In this document: piece after piece, positions 14,825-25,481 of the stretch
Layout: the number at the start of each line of letters is the position of its first letter
Numbering within the stretch: position 1 is the first letter of the stretch
Source of the DNA: Candidatus Multivoradales bacterium
Lineage (GTDB): Bacteria > Acidobacteriota > Thermoanaerobaculia > Multivoradales > J023
Direction: 5' to 3'
NCBI GenBank assembly: GCA_965248925.1
Contig: CBDFLE010000005.1
Coordinates: 1,280,001-1,344,000, forward strand
Length of the DNA: 64,000 nucleotides
Position numbers and translations under genes: made by a program
Notes under the pieces: model-generated
Databases searched by the model: none
Seen by the model: only the letters and a program-made list of their open reading frames with translations
What the model was told of the DNA's origin: nothing

Positions 14825-15003
14825 CCCGCAGCGGTTCCTGCTGAACCAGCACCCGAATCACCTCAATCTGCGTCTTTCGCCGCTGCCGAGGTCGGCAGCG
14901 AGCGAAGATTTCTCGCCCCAGCAGAGAGCCGCCTGGAACTAGAGCCCCTATGGTAGAAACGGATTGGAGGTCTGTATCTTTAGGGCCCCGGAAGGCACCA
15001 TTG

Positions 15004-16041
15004 ATGGCAAAAAGATCACCGATTCGGCCGCTCGAACTTCCTGATCTCGTCGGCAATACGCCGCTACTACACCTGGACCGAGTTCTCGGTAAACTACCCT
15101 TTCGCCTCTACGGCAAATTCGAAGGCGCCAACGCTACTGGCAGCAGCAAGGATCGGCCCGCTTCGGAAGTGATCGAGCGCGCCTTCGAGCGCGGAGAAAT
15201 CAATCGAGAAACCACCATCATAGAATCGAGTTCCGGCAACATGGGCATCGCCCTAGCTCAGGTTTGCTCGCGCCATGGTCTCAGATTTATCTGCGTTGTC
15301 GACCCCAAGATCACCGGCCAGAGCCTAGCTCTGCTCAGAGCCTACGGCGCCGAGATAGAGATGGTGCCGGCGCCGGATGCAAAGAGCGGAGAATTCCTGA
15401 TCGCCCGACTCGAGCGGATCGACGAGATGCTGGTCGAGATTCCCAACAGCTACTGGACTCGCCAATACTCCAATCCCGACAATCCAAGGGCACATTTCCG
15501 CACCATGCAGGAGATCTCAGAAGGGCTGGATGGACAAGTGGACTATCTGTTCATCGCCACCGGATCGTGTGGCACGATCCGCGGTTGTGCTGACTACATC
15601 GCTGACAACCATCTCGAAACTCGACTGGTGGCCGTCGACGCGGTCGGTAGTGTAATCTACGGTGGTGAGCGGACCCAGCGACTAATTCCGGGCTTCGGCT
15701 CAGCCAAGCGGCCGAAAATTTTCCGCGAAGACATGGCGGATGGTTTCGTCAAGATCGACGACCAAGAGAGTGTTATCGGCTGCCATTGGTTGGTGCAACG
15801 AGAAGCAATTCTCGGCGGCGGCTCTTCAGGCGCGGTAATTATGGCGATCGACAGAATGCAGCAGCAAATCCGGCCCGATACCAACGTCGTCGCCCTGCTG
15901 CCAGATCGCGGAGACCGTTACCTGGATACGATTTATTCGGTAGACTGGGTCAAGGAACACTTCGGCGACATTTCCCATTTTTGGGAGACAAGTCGGCGAG
16001 TTCCTGCTCAACTACTGGCCAGCCCAGTACCACTCCAATGA
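15004..16041 (+). CDS. sbnA: SbnA-family PLP enzyme (2,3-diaminopropionate biosynthesis; cysteine synthase fold)
   Basis: GSSKDRPA, IIESSSGNMG, VVDPK, QYSNPDN, LGGGSSG and PDRGDRYLDTIY motifs. An SbnB-like gene is nearby. Confidence 0.85.
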   Translation: MAKRSPIRPLELPDLVGNTPLLHLDRVLGKLPFRLYGKFEGANATGSSKDRPASEVIERAFERGEINRETTIIESSSGNMGIALAQVCSRHGLRFICVVDPKITGQSLALLRAYGAEIEMVPAPDAKSGEFLIARLERIDEMLVEIPNSYWTRQYSNPDNPRAHFRTMQEISEGLDGQVDYLFIATGSCGTIRGCADYIADNHLETRLVAVDAVGSVIYGGERTQRLIPGFGSAKRPKIFREDMADGFVKIDDQESVIGCHWLVQREAILGGGSSGAVIMAIDRMQQQIRPDTNVVALLPDRGDRYLDTIYSVDWVKEHFGDISHFWETSRRVPAQLLASPVPLQ

Positions 16042-16084: not shown

Positions 16085-16546
16085 ATGAAACTCGGAGACG
16101 TATTGCGGAAAGAGAGGCAGAAAGCCTCGCTTTCTACCCAGGAAGTAGCTCAAAAAATGAGCCTAGCGACCGATGCGTACGAAGAAATTGAAGCTGGCGA
16201 CTCAGATGCCGAGGTCTGGGGACCGCGCCTAGCTTTGATCGCCATCGAACTCGAAACTCCAACCTCGCGTCTCCTCGCCACCAGCGGTCGCGCCGCCGAC
16301 ACCGTCCAGGGCCAGGCTGGTGGACTCATCAAAGGACATCGAGAGAGGCGCGAGAAGAGCATTGAGCAACTTGCAGCTGCTTTAGAAATAACCACCGACG
16401 ACTATACTCAAATCGAGGCCGGTGAGTCTCCGCTAGAGACCTTAGGCCCGCAGCTACTAGCCTTTTCAGAAGCTATTGAACAGCCGGTCTTCAATCTCTT
16501 CTATCCCTGCGGCCTACCATTCCAAGAGCTGGACGACTATCCCTGA
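16085..16546 (+). CDS. Tandem XRE-family HTH protein
   Basis: Two repeats of an HTH_XRE pattern (YEEIEAGDS / YTQIEAGES), 153 aa, GGAG RBS. Confidence 0.8.
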   Translation: MKLGDVLRKERQKASLSTQEVAQKMSLATDAYEEIEAGDSDAEVWGPRLALIAIELETPTSRLLATSGRAADTVQGQAGGLIKGHRERREKSIEQLAAALEITTDDYTQIEAGESPLETLGPQLLAFSEAIEQPVFNLFYPCGLPFQELDDYP

Positions 16547-16624: not shown

Positions 16625-17653
16625 TCAGTCGCGGGCAGTCCAAGGAGCCGGTAGGAACCCACGCAGACGGGTGCCAACCCCCTCCTCCTCGGCCAAACGC
16701 ACGGCCAAACCGCCGACCGCCAGATCCAACACCCCCAAACCAAAGGGGCTAAAGACCACTGCGCGCTCGCTGTCGGAACGGGCTGGTTGATTGCCGAGCA
16801 GGATGTCAGCCAGCGGACAGCGGACAAAGTCGCGATGGCCGACCTCAGTCTCGGTGAGATGTATCGAAGTGCCAGCTCTCGCCACATGATCGAGATCGTC
16901 GACTACGTTGTCAGCTGCCAGAATCGCCCGCGGAGCCAAATCGCGCAAAGAAATATGTAGCACCACTCCACCAGCAGCCATCGGAGAAAGGTCGTCTAGG
17001 TAGGGAGCACCAGCTGTCGTAGCGAAAGACACCAGAGAGCGCCCAGCGAGCAGCTGCTCCATGCTGGGCACCTGCTCGATCTCGACCTCACCCAGACTGC
17101 GGCGGCAATGGTCGACAAATTGCTTCGCCCGTTCGTCGGACAGATCGAAAACGAGAACCCTCTCCAGACCGCTGAGGGCAGACCGCAGAAACCGCAGAAT
17201 TTCGAAATTTATCAGGCCACATCCCACCAAGGCAACACTCTCCACGCGACGGCCATCAAGCAACACCCGCGCCGCCAAAGCCGCGCTCGCGGCGGTCCGC
17301 TTGGAGCTGACAATCGAAGCTTCCAATAGTGCCTCGGGATGCCCCGTGCGAGCCGAGTTCAGCGCCATCAACGCTGAGGCCCTGTCAAGTCCTGAGGTGA
17401 TGTTGCCTGGGAACGAAGATATCCACTTCATCCCCGCCAGATCGTAGTCTCCGCCCAAGAAGGCCGGCAGGCATATGATCCTGTTCGCAGGTTCCTCGGG
17501 GAAACGTAGGAAGCTCGAATGAGGCAGAGAGCTAGCGCCTTGACGATGCAACCTGTAGGCGGCGGCGACTTCATCGAGAATCTGCGTCTCTCGGTCTCTC
17601 AACAGAGAGAAAATCTCGTCACCCCTTAGGATCAACAAATGGTCATCAGTCAA
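16625..17653 (-). CDS. sbnB: SbnB-family ornithine cyclodeaminase-like protein (2,3-diaminopropionate biosynthesis)
   Basis: PHSSFLRFP, RIICLPA, GMKWISSFPGN, RTAASAALA, LHISLRD and FSPFGLGVLD motifs. TTG start. Confidence 0.88.
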   Translation of the reverse strand: MTDDHLLILRGDEIFSLLRDRETQILDEVAAAYRLHRQGASSLPHSSFLRFPEEPANRIICLPAFLGGDYDLAGMKWISSFPGNITSGLDRASALMALNSARTGHPEALLEASIVSSKRTAASAALAARVLLDGRRVESVALVGCGLINFEILRFLRSALSGLERVLVFDLSDERAKQFVDHCRRSLGEVEIEQVPSMEQLLAGRSLVSFATTAGAPYLDDLSPMAAGGVVLHISLRDLAPRAILAADNVVDDLDHVARAGTSIHLTETEVGHRDFVRCPLADILLGNQPARSDSERAVVFSPFGLGVLDLAVGGLAVRLAEEEGVGTRLRGFLPAPWTARD

Positions 17654-18625
17654 TAGCTCAACCTCAGAGCATAAAGCCGCCTGAACGACAAAACGCCCAA
17701 TTTACAGTGAATTCTCTATCAAACACCCACAATCTCGGCATCGTCTTCACCGATCCAAATTGCTGGCAGATGTCTGACCGCTAGCTCTCTACGTCTGCGA
17801 CCGGGCCTCGACCGCCGAAGTCAAAGTCCGACCCCCGCATTATGTCGTCAGGCACTTGCCCGCAAATTCTAACACACCACCACCAACCGAAGTGAACTGC
17901 TCTGTACCGTCGAGCGGAGCTGAAGACAGATAACGCATCTAAACCTGTACAAGGTAGATTGTTAAACTTAGTCACTTCACAAGAGCCTCTTATCGACAGC
18001 TAGACAAAAGATAGAAACTGTTCTATCGCTACTCGTTGACAGAGTAAGATGCCTCATCTATTCTTCCCCCACACCAAAGCCTTGGGGTGGTCATTCAACT
18101 CCAGGCGAGTAGGGGACCAAAACTTGATCAGACTAAATCCAGACTAGAGTCAGCTATTCGAGAACTCGCCAAACTGAGTTCTTGGTGTCAGCCTACGTGC
18201 TAGTGGTCGGCAATAGCGACCTACAATCCATCCTCCAGGAACCGCTTAGGGGGCCTGGAAAGCGTGGAGCGCGCCTACCAGCCGGAAGCCTGCAAAACCT
18301 TTTTGGTAAGTAGTCGAACAGGATACCGCTGTCTACTTGCAGCTCTCTTGGGAGCTTGGGCCAGATCATCGGCCCGAGTCAGCTCACTTTCTTTCACAGA
18401 CGGTAACCAGAGCGAATGAAATCCGCAACCTGGGCTTCACCGGGAGAATTGCGCGCGCCAGAAGGAGTGTCTAAATGCAACGCCTGCCGCCTTGACAGTC
18501 CACCATCGATAGACTTTTCATCACGAGATAGCAGCAACTTTTTGCATACGTTTAACTACACTTCAAACGAGTTCCTAATCGAACCCGAATTCAACCGTCC
18601 CCATCCTTATTGAGGAAATCATTCC

Positions 18626-18799
18626 ATGTCGATCAACACCTTCCGCCAGAACCTACTCAACAATGAGTCATCCAGCCCCATGAACCACGCCTTGGTCAAG
18701 CTGCAGAATGTCTCGAATCCCGCCGACTTACTGAGCAAGTCGAGCGTCGACTTTTTCCAGTGGCAGCCGTGGAATCCCGACGCCGAGACCAATATCTGA
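18626..18799 (+). CDS. 57-aa putative pheromone/RiPP precursor peptide 1 (ComX-like)
   Basis: Hand-translated: MSINTFRQNLLNNESSSPMNHALVKLQNVSNPADLLSKSSVDFFQWQPWNPDAETNI. GAGGA RBS, downstream hairpin, and homologous to 23319..23498. Confidence 0.8.
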   Translation: MSINTFRQNLLNNESSSPMNHALVKLQNVSNPADLLSKSSVDFFQWQPWNPDAETNI

Positions 18800-18818
18800 C
18801 CGGGTCCCACCCCACCAA

Positions 18819-18843
18819 GCTGCCGCCGTCCAGTGGCGGCAGC
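18819..18843 (+). terminator. Hairpin after peptide 1 (terminator or mRNA stabiliser)
   Basis: 9-bp stem gctgccgcc/ggcggcagc with no U-tract. Confidence 0.5.
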
Positions 18844-19025
18844 GCCCGACCTTCCGATTGAGATCGCTGCTGATCACACCCAGCGCTCGCTGCTGCCGCG
18901 GCCCAGCCAGGACTTGCCAGGATCCGTTATTGCTCCCTATAATGGCCGCCTCCAGACCATGGCCACCCCCGGTAGGAAACCAGAAAGCTAGCAGGGGAAG
19001 GAGCCCAAAAAGTATCGGAGCGGCG

Positions 19026-20000
19026 ATGATTCTTGATAGCCAGAGCGTGCTCGAGAAGATCCAAGACCGGTTATTGAACTGCTCTCAGATCCACGGCTGG
19101 CCAGAGATGGTCGAGCTGATCAATCGCCCGGTGACGACTGCCGCGACACCGTGTTGGGAGTATCCACTGATCGCCGCCGAAGCCGTTGGCGGAAGAATGG
19201 ACGAAGCGATACCCGCAGCAACCACGATTTTCTCTCTTTTACAGAGCATCCACCTTGTTGACGACATTATAGACCACGACCCGCGCGGCCTTTTTCGGCA
19301 ACTAGGAGAGGGCAACGTGGCCAACATCGCGCTCGCATTCCAAGCGATCGCGGCGACAGTCTTGGTCGATCTCCCACTACCAGCCAAAGTTATTGCCGAA
19401 GCCCAAGCCTGCGTCGCTGAGGTCGCCCTCAATACAGCTGCTGGGCAACGCCTCGACGCCCTCGAGATCACCGACGAGGCAACTTACTGGCGGGCAGCCC
19501 TGGCTAAGACACCGCCCCTATTTGGCGGCGCGTTGAAGCTCGGGGCACTACTCGCCGGAGCCGAATCGAAAATCTGCTCCCAACTTGAAGACCTGGGGCA
19601 GCCGATTGGCAAGATCGTCCAACTCAGTGATGACCTACGGGACGCCATGGAAAGCCCGGCAAACGCAGACTGGCAAGGCCGCGGCAATAACTTGGCGATC
19701 TTATACGCCACGACAGCAGACTACCCAGAACGGCAGCTCTTCGAAGATCTCCTGCCGCGGGTCGGGGCCGAGCCAGAAGCGCTGACTGAAGCGCAAGGAA
19801 TTCTGGTGCGCAGCGGCGCGGTGAGTTATTGCGCCTTCCATATGATCGAGACCTACCGTGTTGGCAACAACCTGGTCGCCGCGACAGGTCTGGCCAACAG
19901 CAAGTCCATTACCGACCTGCTGGACCACTTGACTCTACCCCTGAAGAGTCTATTGGAGGCTGTAGGGGTCGATACCGCGGCGGAGCTCTTCGAGCCATGA
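19026..20000 (+). CDS. Class I isoprenoid-synthase-fold protein, ComQ-like peptide Trp prenyltransferase candidate
   Basis: First Asp-rich motif HLVDDIIDHD, GQRLD, KT and second motif QLSDDLRD. Lacks the N-terminal GKRxR and the RRG after the first motif. GGAG RBS before ATG 19026, 324 aa. Confidence 0.75.
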   Translation: MILDSQSVLEKIQDRLLNCSQIHGWPEMVELINRPVTTAATPCWEYPLIAAEAVGGRMDEAIPAATTIFSLLQSIHLVDDIIDHDPRGLFRQLGEGNVANIALAFQAIAATVLVDLPLPAKVIAEAQACVAEVALNTAAGQRLDALEITDEATYWRAALAKTPPLFGGALKLGALLAGAESKICSQLEDLGQPIGKIVQLSDDLRDAMESPANADWQGRGNNLAILYATTADYPERQLFEDLLPRVGAEPEALTEAQGILVRSGAVSYCAFHMIETYRVGNNLVAATGLANSKSITDLLDHLTLPLKSLLEAVGVDTAAELFEP

Positions 20001-22912
20001 GGCTGCCGACCCAAAGCCTGACCCAGAATCGCCTTGGCAATGCAGTCTGCGTACTACTCTCTTTCCTGATTCTCACTACTTGCCTATTCTATTCCTACAA
20101 CTTCCTCAAGCGACCGAATTTCGGTTTCTTACTCTACCCCTACACTTGGGCCGTGGACCGAATTACCGAGCCTTGCCATGCGCCGACCGGTTGTCTGGAA
20201 CTGGGCGACCAGGTCCTGCAGATCGGCGACACCCGCTTCGGGACTTTTCGCAACAGTCGTTCCAGTCGGCTCTACAACTCTTTCAAAGTGGGTCAATCGG
20301 TAGACTTCGTTATTCTCCGCAATGATCAACAGATGACTGTTGCAGTCCAAGTGCTGCCCGGCACCCGGGCTGGAGCGCTCGACAACTTCTTAGCTTTCTT
20401 CTTTCCACTGATCTTCTGGTTAACCGGCAGCATCGCCATAGTCTTTCTGCGGCCGCGGGACGAGCGCTGGCTACTCCTAGTCGCCTTCTGGTACGACGTC
20501 GCTCTTTGGACGGCTTCTGGATTCGTCTCGGCGACTCAGATGTCCTACTCGTCAGTCGTTTTCAATTTCTCGATATGGCTCTTTATCCCGTTGATTATTC
20601 ACCTTCACCTGATCCTGCCAAATAGTATTCTGCCACGAATCGACCGCTGGATTCTACCTCCCCTCTACCTCGCCACCTTGACCTTGCTGATTCTCGACCA
20701 ACTTTACTTACTCGAGCGCTCAGTGAACCTGCAGTTGTGGCTGATCTCGATCGGTACCTCGCTGGTATTGTTGGCATCGCGTTACTTCCGCCAAGTCCAA
20801 ATGGCCAGTCGAGTGGCGAGCCGCCTTATGGCTTTTGGTGTCGCCATCGGCTTGGGCCCATTTGTGATCACCCTTTACATCACTCTCTTTCTCAACTTGC
20901 TACCAAAATACAACCGGCTTCTCGATGGCGTCGCGATGCTCGTGGTACCGATCTGGCCAATGTCCTACCTCTACGCAATCTACAAACTGGGACGAAGCAA
21001 GTTCGAGTTCCGTGCCAATCGCTTACTTACTTCCTATGGATTCTTCTCAGCCTACATTGCTCTCTTCGTTGCCACCTACTTCGTCCTCTACTACTTCGTC
21101 GACGACAATTGGCCGGGAATGACCGAGGACCCGGTAATCTTCAGCCTGCTGACTTCCGCTTTATTTGTTGCCCTCGGGCCAACCCTTCGCAATCGCTTCC
21201 AGCAACTTGTAGATCGCAATATCTTTGGTATCAGGTATCGGCCCGAAGCGCTAGTTAGTGGATTCGCAGAGCGCATCCCGACTTCCTTCAATCGCGAAAT
21301 CCTGAAACACCTAATCGTCACCGAGATCTTGCCTACCTTGCTGATCCGACAATCATGTCTATACCTCTTCGACGAGGAAGATCCAACTCCCCTCTACATC
21401 CAGGATCTTCCCTCACACCTGATCGCCCGGCCTCTGGACCGGGAACAGTTAGCTCAGCTGCTGACGTCCTCGGGCCGACATCTTAAGCGAGAGACTCAGG
21501 CCGGGCCGATGTCCTGGATCCGACTGGTGATACCGCTTTCAATCGCCGACCGCTACATCGGAGTCTGGCTCTTCGGCCGGCGTGACCCGGACGACTTTTA
21601 CCCAGAGAGTGACATCAGCCTGTTGCGCAACCTTGCCAACCAAATCGCCCCGGTTACAGAACATGTGCGACTGGTGGAGGCGGCACAACAAGAGATCGAG
21701 GAGAACCGGCGGCTACAAAATCAGCTGGTACAATCTCAGAAAATGGAGGCTGTCGGTCGGCTTTCTGCCGGCATCGCCCACGACTTCAACAACCTGTTGT
21801 CGGTCATTATCGGCTATTCCGATTTGCTGCTGGCTCGGTTTCGTGGGCAGCGTCCAATCCAAGAATACGTGTCCGACATTCGAGATGCCGGCAAGCGTGC
21901 TTCAGTGCTAACCAAGCAGCTGTTGACCTTCAGTCGCCAACAGGCCGTCGAGGCCCAGGTAGTCGACCTCAACCGAGTGATCTCCGAGGTCGAGAGTCTC
22001 CTCAGCCGGGCCATCAGCGGAGATATCGAGCTAAAGGTCGAGTTGGGCAGTTCGGAATACTTGGTGATGGTCGATCCGGGTCAAATTGAGCAGGTGCTGC
22101 TCAACCTAGCAGTGAATGCCAGTGATGCCATGCCCAATGGCGGAGTCCTTGCCGTTAGCACCGATCGAGGTGATCAGACTGCCTGGGGCAATGATCTCAA
22201 TTTGCCCACCAATGACTTTGTTCACCTATCTGTTGCCGACAGTGGTTGCGGTATTCCGAACTCTGCTTTGGAGCATATCTTCGAGCCCTTCTTCACCACT
22301 AAGGACATTGGAAAGGGCACCGGACTCGGGTTGTCAATGGTCTATGGCATTATCAGTCAAAGTGATGGCTATATTTTCGTCGACAGTCGGGTTGCCAGAC
22401 GAACTGGAGGCCAGGTCGACGATCAATCCTACTCCGGCACTAGATTTGACATTTATCTGCCGCTGACTACCGAGAAAATCTCGGCCCCTCTCAACGTTCC
22501 AGAAGAGCCGACTGATCAACCCTCTGGAATTGGCACCATTCTAGTGGTCGAAGATAACGATATAGTTCGTAAAGTCACTTGCGAAATCCTACGCGACTGC
22601 GGATATCAGGTTATCGAGGCCAGTGACGGGAAATTGGCTCTAAGAGTATTCGAGCAGCACACTGGCCACATCGATCTACTATTGACTGATGTGGTGATGC
22701 CGGCCATTAGAGGCCCAGAGCTCGCTCGACGACTACTGCTGATGGCTCCTTCTCTACGGGTGATCCTGATGTCTGGCTACAACGACGAGTCTATGATTGA
22801 AGGCGGCGTTAGCACCTCTTGGCCGATGATTCGCAAGCCCTTCTCCCCGGCATCCCTTTGTCGGGAGATTCACGCCCAACTCGATTCCGGGTCCTCGCCA
22901 GCCAGCAAGTAG
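19997..22912 (+). CDS. Hybrid sensor kinase: TM-PDZ-multi-TM-GAF-HisKA-HATPase-REC (ComP-like input)
   Basis: ATGA overlap with the upstream stop. PDZ-like [11 protein letters not shown], about 9-10 hydrophobic segments, GAF ([22 protein letters not shown]), AHDFNNLL H-box, [13 protein letters not shown] and [11 protein letters not shown]. Confidence 0.9.
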
Positions 22913-23318
22913 CTCGCAAAGAAAATTGTATTTTCTATATATCTATTGCTAAACCACTGACCCCAGTTTGACCTCGACTGAGCAACCGCGGGGGGCCATT
23001 TAGCGCCCCCTCTAGATAATTCACCCGCCTGCACAAAACCGGGGAATACACTCGGCTCTCATACCTATTGTTAGATGCGTATGGCAGGGTGCTGTTTGGC
23101 CTGACCGCCTGCGAGGCGCTCATCCATACTGTGCGGAGTTGCCCCCTAACGTAAGTTCGCAAGCGAGAGGGAAATTTCTTCTGAAAGGAGAATAGAGATG
23201 CCCTGTGCACCCCACTGACTAGCTCGAGAAGTCAAACTCGCCGAGTCGTCGTACCAGACTCCGACATCCTCCTGCTGCCCGTTCTGGCAGATTCACAACT
23301 AGTTTCAGGAGACCAGCC

Positions 23319-23498
23319 ATGACGATCAAAGCATTTCCTTCGATGCTTCGCCTAGAAGGCCATCCGCAACCGCTGTGGAGGGCATTGAGAAGTCTCACTC
23401 GGAGCAAACTCGAACCGGGCGAGGTGTCCATGCGGTTCCTGAGTTGGGAGCCTTGGGTGCCTGGGCTTGGGGATGAGACCGGAGCAAGTCCGGCTTGA
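23319..23498 (+). CDS. 59-aa putative pheromone/RiPP precursor peptide 2 (paralog of peptide 1)
   Basis: Hand-translated: MTIKAFPSMLRLEGHPQPLWRALRSLTRSKLEPGEVSMRFLSWEPWVPGLGDETGASPA. AGGAG RBS; aligns with peptide 1. Confidence 0.75.
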   Translation: MTIKAFPSMLRLEGHPQPLWRALRSLTRSKLEPGEVSMRFLSWEPWVPGLGDETGASPA

Positions 23499-23582
23499 GG
23501 ACCTCTGGGCGATTGAAACCAGTCTCGTGTCGTTTTCGCCTGGCCTCGTCTTGTCACCACCACCGGCTGCAGGGCGAGGCTT

Positions 23583-25481
23583 CTAGTCCGCCGTTGCTGG
23601 CGGGTCTCGCAGACGATCTGCCAGCCCCGAGCTTCGCAAGGCTGGACTTTCTATCGCGAACCGGAGAATCTCTCGACTGGCAAAGATCTGTACTTTGCTA
23701 CGCGCCCGGGTCAGCGCGGTATAAAGTAACTGCCGGGAAAGCACTGGAGAGATTTCCACCGGCAGTACAATCGCCACCTCTTGGTGTTCTGATCCTTGGC
23801 TCTTGTGCACGCTCGAGGCCAGCGCCGATTCATGTGCTGGCAGCCACGAGGGAGCCACTTCGCGGACTCCATCGGCGGCTGCAAAGTAGGCTTGAGGACC
23901 GCGCTGCGGATGACTGGCAATGACCCCAAAATCCCCGTTGTAGAGTTCTTGGCGGTAGTCGTTGCGGGTGAGGATCAGAGGCCGCCCTTCATAATGCCCA
24001 CCGGCCAGGCGCTGTAAACCCTGCGCAGAGTCCAAGTGCCGCTCAATTGCTGAGTCCACTGCCAGCGCGCCGAGGGCGCCATGGCGATGGGCGCAGAGAA
24101 TGCGGAACTGCTCTAGCAACTCGAGCTTGGCGAGCGGGTCTGAAAGCTCTAGCAGCTGGCGCCAGTTTCTCAGCGCCCGAGTGATTAACTGGACAGGCAC
24201 CTTGCCGCCGGCGGGAGGCTCGATTCTCTGCAACACTTCTTGCCCCGGCTGCTCAAGCAACTGTAATGCTCGCTCGACCTTGCCAAGTCTGACGGCGGTT
24301 GCTAGTTCCTCGATCAGGCCGCCAGCGCTGTAGCGGTAGCTGTGTTGCAGAGTAACTATTGAGTCGCCGATAGCGGCGCTGTCATGGTCCCGATTCTCGG
24401 TCACCGAGTCTGGCTCGGCGGGCTTCAGGCTTTGCTGCGCGACTTCTTCGATATCCTGCCTCAGGCGGGTCGAGAAGCTGGCAGGTGCGGTACAGATATC
24501 GGCCAGAACCGCGCCCGCCTCTACCGCCGCAAGCTGGTCTGGGTCGCCTAATAGGATGCAGCGGGCGGTCTTGGGCAGGGCGCCTAGGAGCCGGCTCATC
24601 AGCGCCAGATCAACCATCGAGGCCTCGTCGAGCACTACCAGATCCGCTAGCAACGGCCGCCCTGGGCCATGTCTAAAGTGGCTTGTACTACCGCCTACAG
24701 ATCCCAGGGCACGATGCACAGTCGAGGCATTCTCGGCTATCCCAGCAATCACCTCCGGCACCACGTCGAGCTGTTGTTTGGCCTGGCGGATCGACTGTCC
24801 AAGCCGTGCCGCCGCCTTGCCGGTTGGCGCCAGCAAGAGAGTGCGCGGCGGCGGCTCACCGGCCGCCAATGCCTGCTCGCTGAGGAGAGTCAGAATCTTC
24901 ACCACCGTGGTGGTCTTGCCGGTGCCAGGGCCACCGGTAATAACGCACAGTCGCCGGAGGACGGCGATGGCCGACGCGACTCGCTGCCAATCGATCGCCA
25001 CGGTCGAGTTCTTAATAAAGAGGCGTTCCAGGCCGTCGCAGAGCAAATCTCGGTCGACTGCCGGCGGCGGCCCCCCGGCTAGCAGATGAAGGCTCTCTGC
25101 AAGGTCTTCTTGATGCCGCCAGTAGCGGTGAAGATAGAGCCTGCCACGGCGATCGAGGATCAAGGGCCGACTCGGCGAGCGCTCTGCTGACGCCGCGGCA
25201 TCGACCAACGGACTGGCGGCCAGCAGCTCCCGCCAACGCCTTGCCGGTGGCCAACTGCGATCTTCGGTGGAATCCTCAGGGCTGCTCGCCGGTGGCGTCA
25301 GCACCCAGCGTTCAAGATCCAAACACGAGTGCCCGCGCCTGAGTTGGCGAGCGGTCAGGGCCACCGCCAACAGCACTTCGGCACGCTCCTCGTTGGCCAG
25401 GCGACCCAGGGTGTGGGCCAGCTGCTCGTCCAAGGCGCCCAACTCGCCGGCTGCCCGCAGCTCTTCGAGAGTCGGTGTCAC
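23583..25481 (-). CDS. recD: Exodeoxyribonuclease V alpha subunit
   Basis: TGGPGTGKTT, APTGKAAARL, LDEASMVD, GDPDQL and VHKSQGSE motifs. GTG start overlaps the recB stop. Confidence 0.93.
   Translation of the reverse strand: MTPTLEELRAAGELGALDEQLAHTLGRLANEERAEVLLAVALTARQLRRGHSCLDLERWVLTPPASSPEDSTEDRSWPPARRWRELLAASPLVDAAASAERSPSRPLILDRRGRLYLHRYWRHQEDLAESLHLLAGGPPPAVDRDLLCDGLERLFIKNSTVAIDWQRVASAIAVLRRLCVITGGPGTGKTTTVVKILTLLSEQALAAGEPPPRTLLLAPTGKAAARLGQSIRQAKQQLDVVPEVIAGIAENASTVHRALGSVGGSTSHFRHGPGRPLLADLVVLDEASMVDLALMSRLLGALPKTARCILLGDPDQLAAVEAGAVLADICTAPASFSTRLRQDIEEVAQQSLKPAEPDSVTENRDHDSAAIGDSIVTLQHSYRYSAGGLIEELATAVRLGKVERALQLLEQPGQEVLQRIEPPAGGKVPVQLITRALRNWRQLLELSDPLAKLELLEQFRILCAHRHGALGALAVDSAIERHLDSAQGLQRLAGGHYEGRPLILTRNDYRQELYNGDFGVIASHPQRGPQAYFAAADGVREVAPSWLPAHESALASSVHKSQGSEHQEVAIVLPVEISPVLSRQLLYTALTRARSKVQIFASREILRFAIESPALRSSGLADRLRDPPATAD

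Follow-up and report, generated by a model that had tools for sequence, protein, structure and literature searches.

A candidate ComQXP-like cassette of tryptophan-containing precursor peptides, a divergent isoprenyl-diphosphate-synthase-fold enzyme and a hybrid sensor kinase in Acidobacteriota and other phyla

In the ComQ/ComX/ComP, PalQ/PalX/PalP and StheQ/StheX systems, an enzyme of the isoprenyl diphosphate synthase (IPPS) superfamily prenylates a Trp near the C-terminus of a small precursor encoded next to it, and the ComQ and Pal systems also have an adjacent histidine kinase. A census published in 2014 recorded comQXPA in no phylum but the Firmicutes. StheQ has been presented as an extension beyond the Firmicutes in a preprint (bioRxiv 10.64898/2026.08.29.745113), which reports that StheQ prenylates StheX at the Trp that stands second from its C-terminal end, as determined by liquid chromatography-tandem mass spectrometry, and ties a pseudo-second aspartate-rich motif (pseudo-SARM, NDxxx) of the enzyme to acceptor positioning. 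The Pal cluster of Paenibacillus alvei was found partly through structure-predicted binding of enzyme and precursor (PMC10853753). We analysed a cassette of four genes in a stretch of 64,000 nucleotides from a Candidatus Multivoradales bacterium (Acidobacteriota), the whole of which is called the window. The cassette encodes two small Trp-containing peptides, a divergent IPPS-fold enzyme and a hybrid sensor histidine kinase. Judged from sequences, structural models and analogy, it probably specifies a ComQXP-like prenylated-Trp peptide signal and its receptor, in a lineage separate from that of the Bacillus ComQ-ComX-ComP system.

All four genes lie on the + strand. The first (18626..18799) encodes the 57-aa precursor peptide P1 and is preceded by a GAGGAAA ribosome-binding site about 9 nt 5' of its ATG. 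It is followed by the gene of the 324-aa enzyme (19026..20000), a divergent trans-isoprenyl-diphosphate-synthase fold that matches PF00348; its longest open reading frame (ORF) begins at a TTG at 18858, and homologues align from the Met at 19026. The gene of the 971-aa kinase (19997..22912), assigned from Pfam domains, AlphaFold2 models and hydropathy, overlaps the TGA of the enzyme gene with its ATG in the sequence ATGA. The last gene (23319..23498) encodes a diverged second precursor, P2, of 59 aa, with an AGGAG ribosome-binding site upstream. An earlier interpretation based on the letters of the window, called here the sequence-only reading, had proposed these four ORFs, the ribosome-binding site of P1 and the ATGA coupling, all of which were recovered; it also mentioned ComQ relatives in Chloroflexi, which agrees with the StheQ/StheX preprint.

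The cassette resembles ComQ-ComX-ComP of Bacillus subtilis and other Firmicutes in that an IPPS-superfamily enzyme, an adjacent Trp-containing precursor of about 55 aa and an adjacent kinase with multiple transmembrane (TM) helices are encoded on one strand by overlapping genes. In the Bacillus system, the product is a prenylated-Trp pheromone that the kinase senses. As with ComX, the small peptides carry Trp close to the C-terminus and stand beside the enzyme, P1 with W46/W49 and P2 with W43/W46. Unlike ComX, however, the core of the window peptides has two invariant Trp residues (WxxW), and neither P1 nor P2 matches any Pfam family, ComX included, or any NCBIfam family at E<=0.01. The gene order also differs, being Q-X-P-A in Bacillus and X-Q-K-X' (precursor, enzyme, kinase, second precursor) in the window, with no adjacent ComA-like regulator. 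The window kinase also differs from ComP in its PDZ-like/10-TM/GAF hybrid layout, which includes HisKA and has a receiver domain (REC) at the C-terminus.

The other described systems are similar in part. [quoted passage not shown] Compared by description, its motifs are a D-E-x-x-D FARM and a pseudo-SARM N215-D-x-x-D, whereas the corresponding D202 of the window enzyme is invariant. StheX, 69 aa long, is encoded downstream of its enzyme and ends in WW-x, whereas the main precursor of the window lies upstream and carries WxxW; the available sections of the preprint mention no kinase. The PalQ-PalX-PalP cluster likewise unites a histidine kinase, a precursor and a Trp prenyltransferase of the isoprenoid-synthase superfamily (PMC10853753). 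In its authors' similarity network, PalQ, which had earlier been described as a terpene synthase, clusters separately (PMC10853753), whereas the window enzyme matches PF00348; PalX is a precursor of the nitrile hydratase leader peptide type with a strictly C-terminal Trp, and differs from the window peptides, which have another leader family and mostly internal Trp residues.

The P domain of ChrPC (Hubrich et al. 2024, as summarised in a review, PMC13290415) is also like a trans-isoprenyl diphosphate synthase and modifies an internal Trp of a ribosomal peptide with C10-C20 donors. It is fused to a cyclase domain, whereas a search for longer fused relatives of the window enzyme family, which bears only weakly on this question, returned 2 distant proteins at E ~3e-9. 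Among homologues of unusual architecture, P0322 (655 aa) runs from the enzyme into the N-terminal sensor of the kinase and is either a natural fusion or a frameshifted gene call, and P0374 and P0364 consist of two IPPS-like halves in tandem; no cyclase domain is present in these three proteins. Literature searches, with the ChrPC paper and supplementary files outside their reach, returned no description of the peptide family, the enzyme clade or the cassette. The best reading is that the cassette works like ComQXP and forms a separate lineage, set apart from ComQ, StheQ and PalQ by motifs and by their published descriptions.

Relatives of the cassette were collected by a profile scan with an alignment of the enzyme family (A1) against one genome per species, which yielded at least 62 related enzyme loci; the same scan with the single window enzyme sequence found no relative. 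All counts of loci given below refer to the 62 that were listed. Their labels comprise Thermoanaerobaculia, Holophagales and other Acidobacteriota, several Chloroflexota, Myxococcota (among them Plesiocystis pacifica), Candidatus Entotheonella, Kordia and a small number of further groups. One locus (L048), from a metagenome-assembled genome labelled Promethearchaeota archaeon, has a full cassette on a 5.7-kb contig with the kinase homologue on the opposite strand, and more likely reflects a binning error or transfer than a native archaeal system. In ten of the loci, a search for W.PW revealed a small conserved ORF immediately upstream of the enzyme, and these ORFs seeded a hidden Markov model (HMM) of the peptide. 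At a domain threshold of E<=1e-3, 55 of the 62 loci have a homologous small ORF, which 51 of them carry on the same strand with its end no more than 600 bp upstream of the enzyme; 17 have a second copy that begins within 700 bp downstream. Seven loci had no peptide; two of them have 10 bp or less of upstream sequence, and a third, L069, has only a 28%-identity match to the enzyme. Homologous enzyme-kinase loci devoid of small Trp peptides had been named as the pattern that would speak against a lipopeptide circuit; what was found was the peptide in these 55 loci and a kinase sensor homologue (residues 1-560, E<=1e-20) in 46, usually directly after the enzyme or the second peptide.

P1 and P2 have the same layout. 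In P1, a leader of the pattern M-S-I-x-x-F ... A-L-x-x-L is followed by the core W46-Q-P-W49 and an 8-residue tail; in P2, the same leader pattern precedes the core W43-E-P-W46 and a 13-residue tail. The family consensus reads MSIxDFxxKLxSxxExxxLxxALRxLS, a variable spacer, W-x-x-W and then 0-25 residues. An alignment of 42 sequences (A2) shows no variation at F6, W46 and W49 and conservation of 90% or more at M1, I3, L23 and L26. Spacers and C-terminal tails are hypervariable, and the two Trp are the sole invariant residues outside the leader. The Pro of the window WxPW is variable in this alignment, and the WxPWxP core put forward earlier must be replaced by W-x-x-W. The listed loci contain at least 78 precursor ORFs that start with Met, nearly all of them with W-x-x-W. 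The exceptions are L042 and L049, with one Trp, and L004 and L034, whose C-terminal tail is rich in Tyr and Trp. Multi-core precursors of three or four WxxW units spaced 10-20 residues apart occur in three loci (L032:6712-6975, labelled Deltaproteobacteria; L033:6662-6976, Myxococcota; L039:6718-6990, Plesiocystis), an organisation that can be likened to that of multi-core peptides that are made on ribosomes and then modified post-translationally (RiPPs). Many precursors outside Acidobacteriota end at the second Trp or no more than 2 residues past it. The hallmarks of a RiPP-type precursor, namely a leader that is conserved, a core that varies around an invariant target residue and a place beside a modifying enzyme in different taxa, are therefore present in the 55 peptide-bearing loci.

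The specificity of the peptide model was controlled with an HMM built from 40 peptides that excluded those of the window and run against all 173,771 six-frame segments of the 7.98-Mb window genome. P1 came out on top (E 1.2e-08), ahead of P2 (E 0.088) and of a third match at E 2; an HMM whose training set contained P2 gave it E 4e-17. P1 is, by sequence, a clear member of the family. P2, which the sequence-only reading called homologous, appears to be a diverged copy: it is marginal when taken alone, and its assignment leans also on its position and on its likeness to P1, with which it aligns end to end (BLASTP E 2e-5 in a single comparison). A 114-aa ORF on the opposite strand (23219-23563, -) covers P2 entirely; given the match of P2 to the peptide family, it was taken to be a shadow frame.

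The association of enzyme (E<=1e-10) and sensor (E<=1e-15) was then scored in 401 evenly sampled genomes of the Acidobacteriota. Both occur in the identical 5 genomes, that of the window included, and are adjacent in each; the sensor was found in 0 of the 396 others. Three of the five genomes belong to one genus, so that fewer than five independent events are counted, and one locus of this sample, L004, has the same peptide sequence at the same coordinates as L034, the record of which bears the label Acidobacteria and so indicates the phylum of the sample. The common gene orders among the listed loci are X-Q-X'-K and X-Q-K. The two precursors and the order X-Q-K-X' noted earlier hold for the window, but this order was not seen in the other 62 listed loci, many of whose contigs end early.

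The kinase is less widespread than the peptide. Of the 16 listed loci without the sensor kinase, four have less than 700 bp of downstream sequence, which leaves about a dozen well-flanked loci with peptide and enzyme but not this kinase, so the pair need not signal through it. Among the kinase-less loci are that of Entotheonella, which has two precursors next to an ABC transporter, that of Kordia, the three multi-core loci and some Chloroflexota, three of which have an OmpR-type regulator. Ser/Thr kinase-TPR genes lie near the multi-core loci L032 and L033. These loci bear on a different explanation, in which peptide and enzyme yield a lipidated RiPP natural product, for instance a membrane-active antibiotic or a surfactant. 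There would then be no dedicated pheromone: the kinase would sense only for regulation or self-protection, or else, as in lantibiotics, one peptide would be product and inducer at once. Multi-core precursors are typical of natural-product RiPPs, and prenylation raises the membrane activity of peptides (review PMC13290415), both of which would suit such a product as well as the kinase-less loci do. Nevertheless, in the 401-genome sample the sensor occurs only in enzyme-bearing genomes and always adjacent to the enzyme, it accompanies the pair in 46 of the listed loci, and neither immunity, exporter nor further tailoring genes are conserved in these loci. We therefore regard this explanation as unlikely, though with some weight, and the ComQXP-like signal as the preferred reading.

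The isoprenoid-synthase fold predicted earlier for the enzyme was borne out by its match to PF00348 (polyprenyl_synt; E 2.9e-15, 56.6 bits, cut-off 27). This is the weakest of six PF00348 matches in the window genome, the other five scoring 105.6-202.2 bits, and because of these five stronger genes housekeeping isoprenoid synthesis appears to be covered elsewhere. The NCBIfam matches at E<=0.01 are all chain-length synthases and lie far below their cut-offs; the top one, an encapsulin-cargo polyprenyl transferase, reached 60 bits against a cut-off of 450 and was rejected. In the PDB, the enzyme matched the geranylgeranyl diphosphate synthase 5jfq (1.2e-16) and chain 9v4g (1.3e-12), a sister entry of which, 9v4j, is named Ord1. 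The enzyme family is discrete, about 316 aa long, and comprises 171 proteins at E<=1e-5 among the candidates scored. A 34-member profile searched against a library of 1.84 billion sequences retrieved 246 representatives at E<=1e-30 after clustering at 50% identity, and 2,331 at E<=1e-10, where canonical synthases start to enter. The source names of the homologues are generic, either geranylgeranyl pyrophosphate synthase or polyprenyl synthetase.

The motifs of the enzyme are a FARM (D79-D80-I-I-D83), a SARM (D202-D203-L-R-D206), Q199 and K161-T162; D79, D80, D83, Q199, D202, D203 and D206 are invariant in the 34-member family alignment. Eight family members were aligned with the five PF00348 paralogues from the window genome. 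The family retains the FARM (DDxxD), GQxxD, KT and the SARM (DDLxD), but has CWEYP or LWDYP where the paralogues have GGKRxRP; RRG is missing after the FARM, and the GK loop after the SARM is deleted. By regular expression, four of the five paralogues carry GGKRxR or GKRxR and four of the five an Asp-rich motif followed by RR. In farnesyl diphosphate synthase, the basic residues of the GGKRxRP, RRG and GK motifs hold the diphosphates of isopentenyl diphosphate (IPP) and of the allylic substrate. Of the features of a chain-elongating synthase, the enzyme therefore has the PF00348 match, the FARM and the SARM, and lacks the three basic motifs. Compared with the ComQ family (IPR033965), the DDxxD FARM is shared and the pseudo-SARM NDxxx is not, the window enzyme having DDLRD, the three Asp of which are invariant. 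The earlier description of the enzyme as ComQ-like thus stands for the prenyl-synthase fold and the FARM, whereas by the pseudo-SARM criterion its intact SARM places the enzyme outside the ComQ family.

These data also bear on another alternative, a conventional polyprenyl diphosphate synthase that lies by chance next to a two-component kinase unrelated to it, with small ORFs that are chance frames. Such a gene would explain why PF00348 is matched above its cut-off and why homologues bear synthase annotations. It would not explain small ORFs that are conserved as proteins across the labelled phyla and are the two best matches in 8 Mb, nor the exact co-occurrence of enzyme and sensor in the 401 genomes; the window genome has five canonical PF00348 genes elsewhere, and GGKRxRP, RRG and the GK loop are missing from this enzyme. 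Peptide conservation, motif loss, the genome-wide HMM ranking and co-occurrence already contradict this alternative, to which we attach hardly any credence.

The association of peptide and enzyme was further modelled as a complex. The median score was 0.71 (runs 0.75/0.71/0.69) and the best of 3 controls scored 0.00; in a calibration that is only rough here because custom alignments were used, the 0.71 mark was reached by 58 of 80 solved complexes and by 2 of 110 mismatched pairs. Between runs, 41% or more of the contacts are shared, and the partner has a confidence (predicted local distance difference test, pLDDT) of 60 or higher. Residues 1-39 of the peptide meet residues 151 and 201-321 of the enzyme in the confident interface, whose lowest-error contacts are those of leader residues I3, F6, L23 and L26 with enzyme residues Y227, G264, S267 and Y268. 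These four enzyme residues are invariant or nearly so in the family, and some of the enzyme contact residues fall where three of the five canonical paralogues have a gap. The model thus predicts that the leader docks on a family-conserved surface of the enzyme. To our knowledge, no complex of this kind has been solved.

Heteromeric IPPS enzymes with small subunits exist, and the small protein could be an unmodified partner that binds the enzyme through its N-terminal helices, serving as regulator or non-catalytic subunit in a heteromeric prenyl diphosphate synthase or a terpene-type enzyme. A confident interface confined to peptide residues 1-39 would suit a subunit, as would an enzyme that keeps both Asp-rich motifs like true synthases. 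On the other hand, a subunit would hardly be expected to keep two Trp near a C-terminus of variable length as its only invariant residues outside the leader, amid hypervariable spacers and tails; the precursors are moreover duplicated, and multi-core in three loci, which fits a substrate core, and the basic motifs of the IPP site are absent. We consider a subunit role improbable, and a substrate of the adjacent enzyme remains the preferred reading of the peptide.

From the N- to the C-terminus, the kinase is composed of TM1, an extracytoplasmic PDZ-like beta domain of about 85 aa, 9-10 TM helices, GAF, HisKA, HATPase_c and REC. Pfam recognised HisKA, HATPase_c and Response_reg, with GAF_3 just below its cut-off (25.4 bits against 27) and PDZ_2 sub-threshold (E 0.0038, 17.9 bits against 27). 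An AlphaFold2 model of residues 1-415 (mean pLDDT 88.3, predicted template modelling score 0.86) has one TM helix, a beta-rich domain at about 40-120 and nine to ten helices (residues 127-408), in agreement with hydropathy. The beta domain contains two invariant Cys, C60 and C66. In Foldseek it comes closest to DegS, DegQ and HtrA PDZ domains, with the best match at E 0.039 over about 90 aligned columns, and no match reached 0.001; the kinase has no protease domain, and its PDZ-like domain sits, unlike those of DegS/DegQ/HtrA, between TM1 and the 9-10-helix bundle. For the TM bundle, Foldseek returned no solved relative, the resemblances to 7-TM receptors and to ACER3 being non-significant. 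The nearest protein-atlas clusters are uncharacterised and have PDZ families in 16-65% of their members. The extracytoplasmic domain is thus tentatively called PDZ-like, an assignment that sequence and model comparisons suggest without proving. Several of the matched DegS entries are complexes with peptides that end in an aromatic residue (YQF, YRF), and by this analogy the PDZ-like domain may read the aromatic C-terminus of the mature peptide.

Taken together, these results allow a mechanism to be proposed. P1, and probably P2, would be ribosomal precursor peptides whose conserved N-terminal leader docks on the family-specific helical surface of the IPPS-fold enzyme. Having lost the basic residues that hold IPP, the enzyme would bind a prenyl diphosphate through its remaining Asp-rich motifs and use it to alkylate one or both core Trp. 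After removal of the leader, and perhaps also of the C-terminal tail, the lipopeptide would leave the cytoplasm, to be detected by the PDZ-like/multi-TM sensor of the adjacent hybrid kinase, which would start a phosphorelay. Being a hybrid, the kinase needs a phosphotransfer partner. Trp prenylation followed by sensing from outside is the most economical reading of the near-universal pairing of peptide and enzyme, the lost IPP-site motifs and the cassette-specific link to the sensor. The analogous lipopeptide circuit proposed in the sequence-only reading is thereby supported through recurrence, exact co-occurrence, motif loss and the leader-enzyme model, and its prenylation, secretion and sensing steps are those we infer.

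Several observations weigh against this mechanism. The complex model is confident about the position of the leader only and does not seat the Trp core in the active site with confidence. The intact SARM (DDLRD) departs from the pseudo-SARM of ComQ and StheQ, so the chemistry could differ. The PDZ assignment is weak, both Pfam and Foldseek scores being those given above, and P2 reached only E 0.088 with the leave-out HMM. About a dozen well-flanked loci possess peptide and enzyme without this kinase. The window genome has neither a response regulator nor Hpt adjacent to the cassette, nor an orthologue of the receiver-EAL protein described below. Finally, no exporter or leader peptidase is conserved in the loci, which leaves the crossing of two diderm membranes by a lipopeptide unexplained.

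A gene for a receiver joined to a cyclic di-GMP (c-di-GMP) phosphodiesterase domain (REC-EAL) lies directly upstream of the precursor in 27 of the 62 listed loci (for example L011:5030-6355). Its copies are 66-98% identical over the aligned stretch and are far more conserved than the enzyme. In the window genome, the only match is a 30%-identity EAL-domain protein. The absence of a comA gene reported earlier is correct for the immediate surroundings of the window cassette, but the lack of an adjacent output regulator is a trait of this genome and not one shared by the family. The cassettes could represent an undescribed, widespread class of lipopeptide signals outside the Firmicutes, diderms included, with WxxW precursors, a prenyltransferase clade of its own that keeps both Asp motifs, a dedicated kinase with a periplasmic PDZ-like reader of the aromatic C-terminus and, in many lineages, a REC-EAL/c-di-GMP output; we regard this broader proposal as a serious possibility that is somewhat doubtful as a whole.

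The setting of the cassette was also examined. Across 17600-23400, which comprises the cassette and a 970-bp gene-free stretch 5' of P1, the G+C content is 0.49-0.59, compared with 0.60-0.66 in the flanks; this may reflect acquisition or merely the composition of membrane-protein genes. The gene-free stretch contains no ORF or Rfam match of note, and an Rfam search of 17500-23700 gave nothing credible, with a single chance match at E 0.082. Comparison of the regions upstream of P1 and P2 for a shared operator gave 5 common 9-mers against about 2.9 in shuffled sequence and 1 common 10-mer against about 0.65, which is not significant. The sequencing runs listed as containing this DNA are four full DNA runs from one sample and one run with a small share, with no RNA run among them. 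Neither promoter-like sites (4, against 2.5 +/- 1.5 expected) nor terminator-like sites (3, against 5.1 +/- 2.4 expected) are enriched; one 11/12 match of the promoter/terminator scan lies at 18914-18943, between P1 and the enzyme.

Upstream of the cassette, the window encodes a PLP-dependent enzyme (PALP; 14950-16041, +), a 153-aa protein with two helix-turn-helix domains (16085-16546) and a gene of the ornithine cyclodeaminase/mu-crystallin family (16625-17653, -). The first and last of these presumably resemble the SbnA/SbnB diaminopropionate pair. Just 3' of P2 (23583-29200, -) are ORFs of 663 and 1240 aa that, from reading of their translations only, are RecD-like and RecB-like. Locus L011 (3-4912) has a PD-(D/E)XK nuclease gene and a UvrD-helicase/nuclease gene just upstream of its cassette, and nuclease/helicase-like ORFs cluster in about nine related loci, the ORF clustering being noisy owing to shadow ORFs in high-GC DNA. 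Genes for DNA-end processing thus recur beside the cassette in distant relatives.

Experimental evidence of prenylated-Trp pheromones comes from Bacillus and from one case each in Paenibacillus and Sphaerobacter. The cassette would extend this principle to Acidobacteriota, Chloroflexota, Myxococcota and others, abundant and poorly cultured phyla of soil and sediment with almost no known cell-cell signals, and would bring with it a defined, testable receptor. The enzyme clade, with its 246 representatives at 50% identity, would offer new peptide-prenylating enzymes for biocatalysis and a natural experiment in which an IPPS active site was converted to peptide alkylation with the SARM kept. The REC-EAL neighbour points to a possible link from peptide signal to c-di-GMP and, if the cassettes do form a widespread class, cell density would be coupled to c-di-GMP in many lineages.

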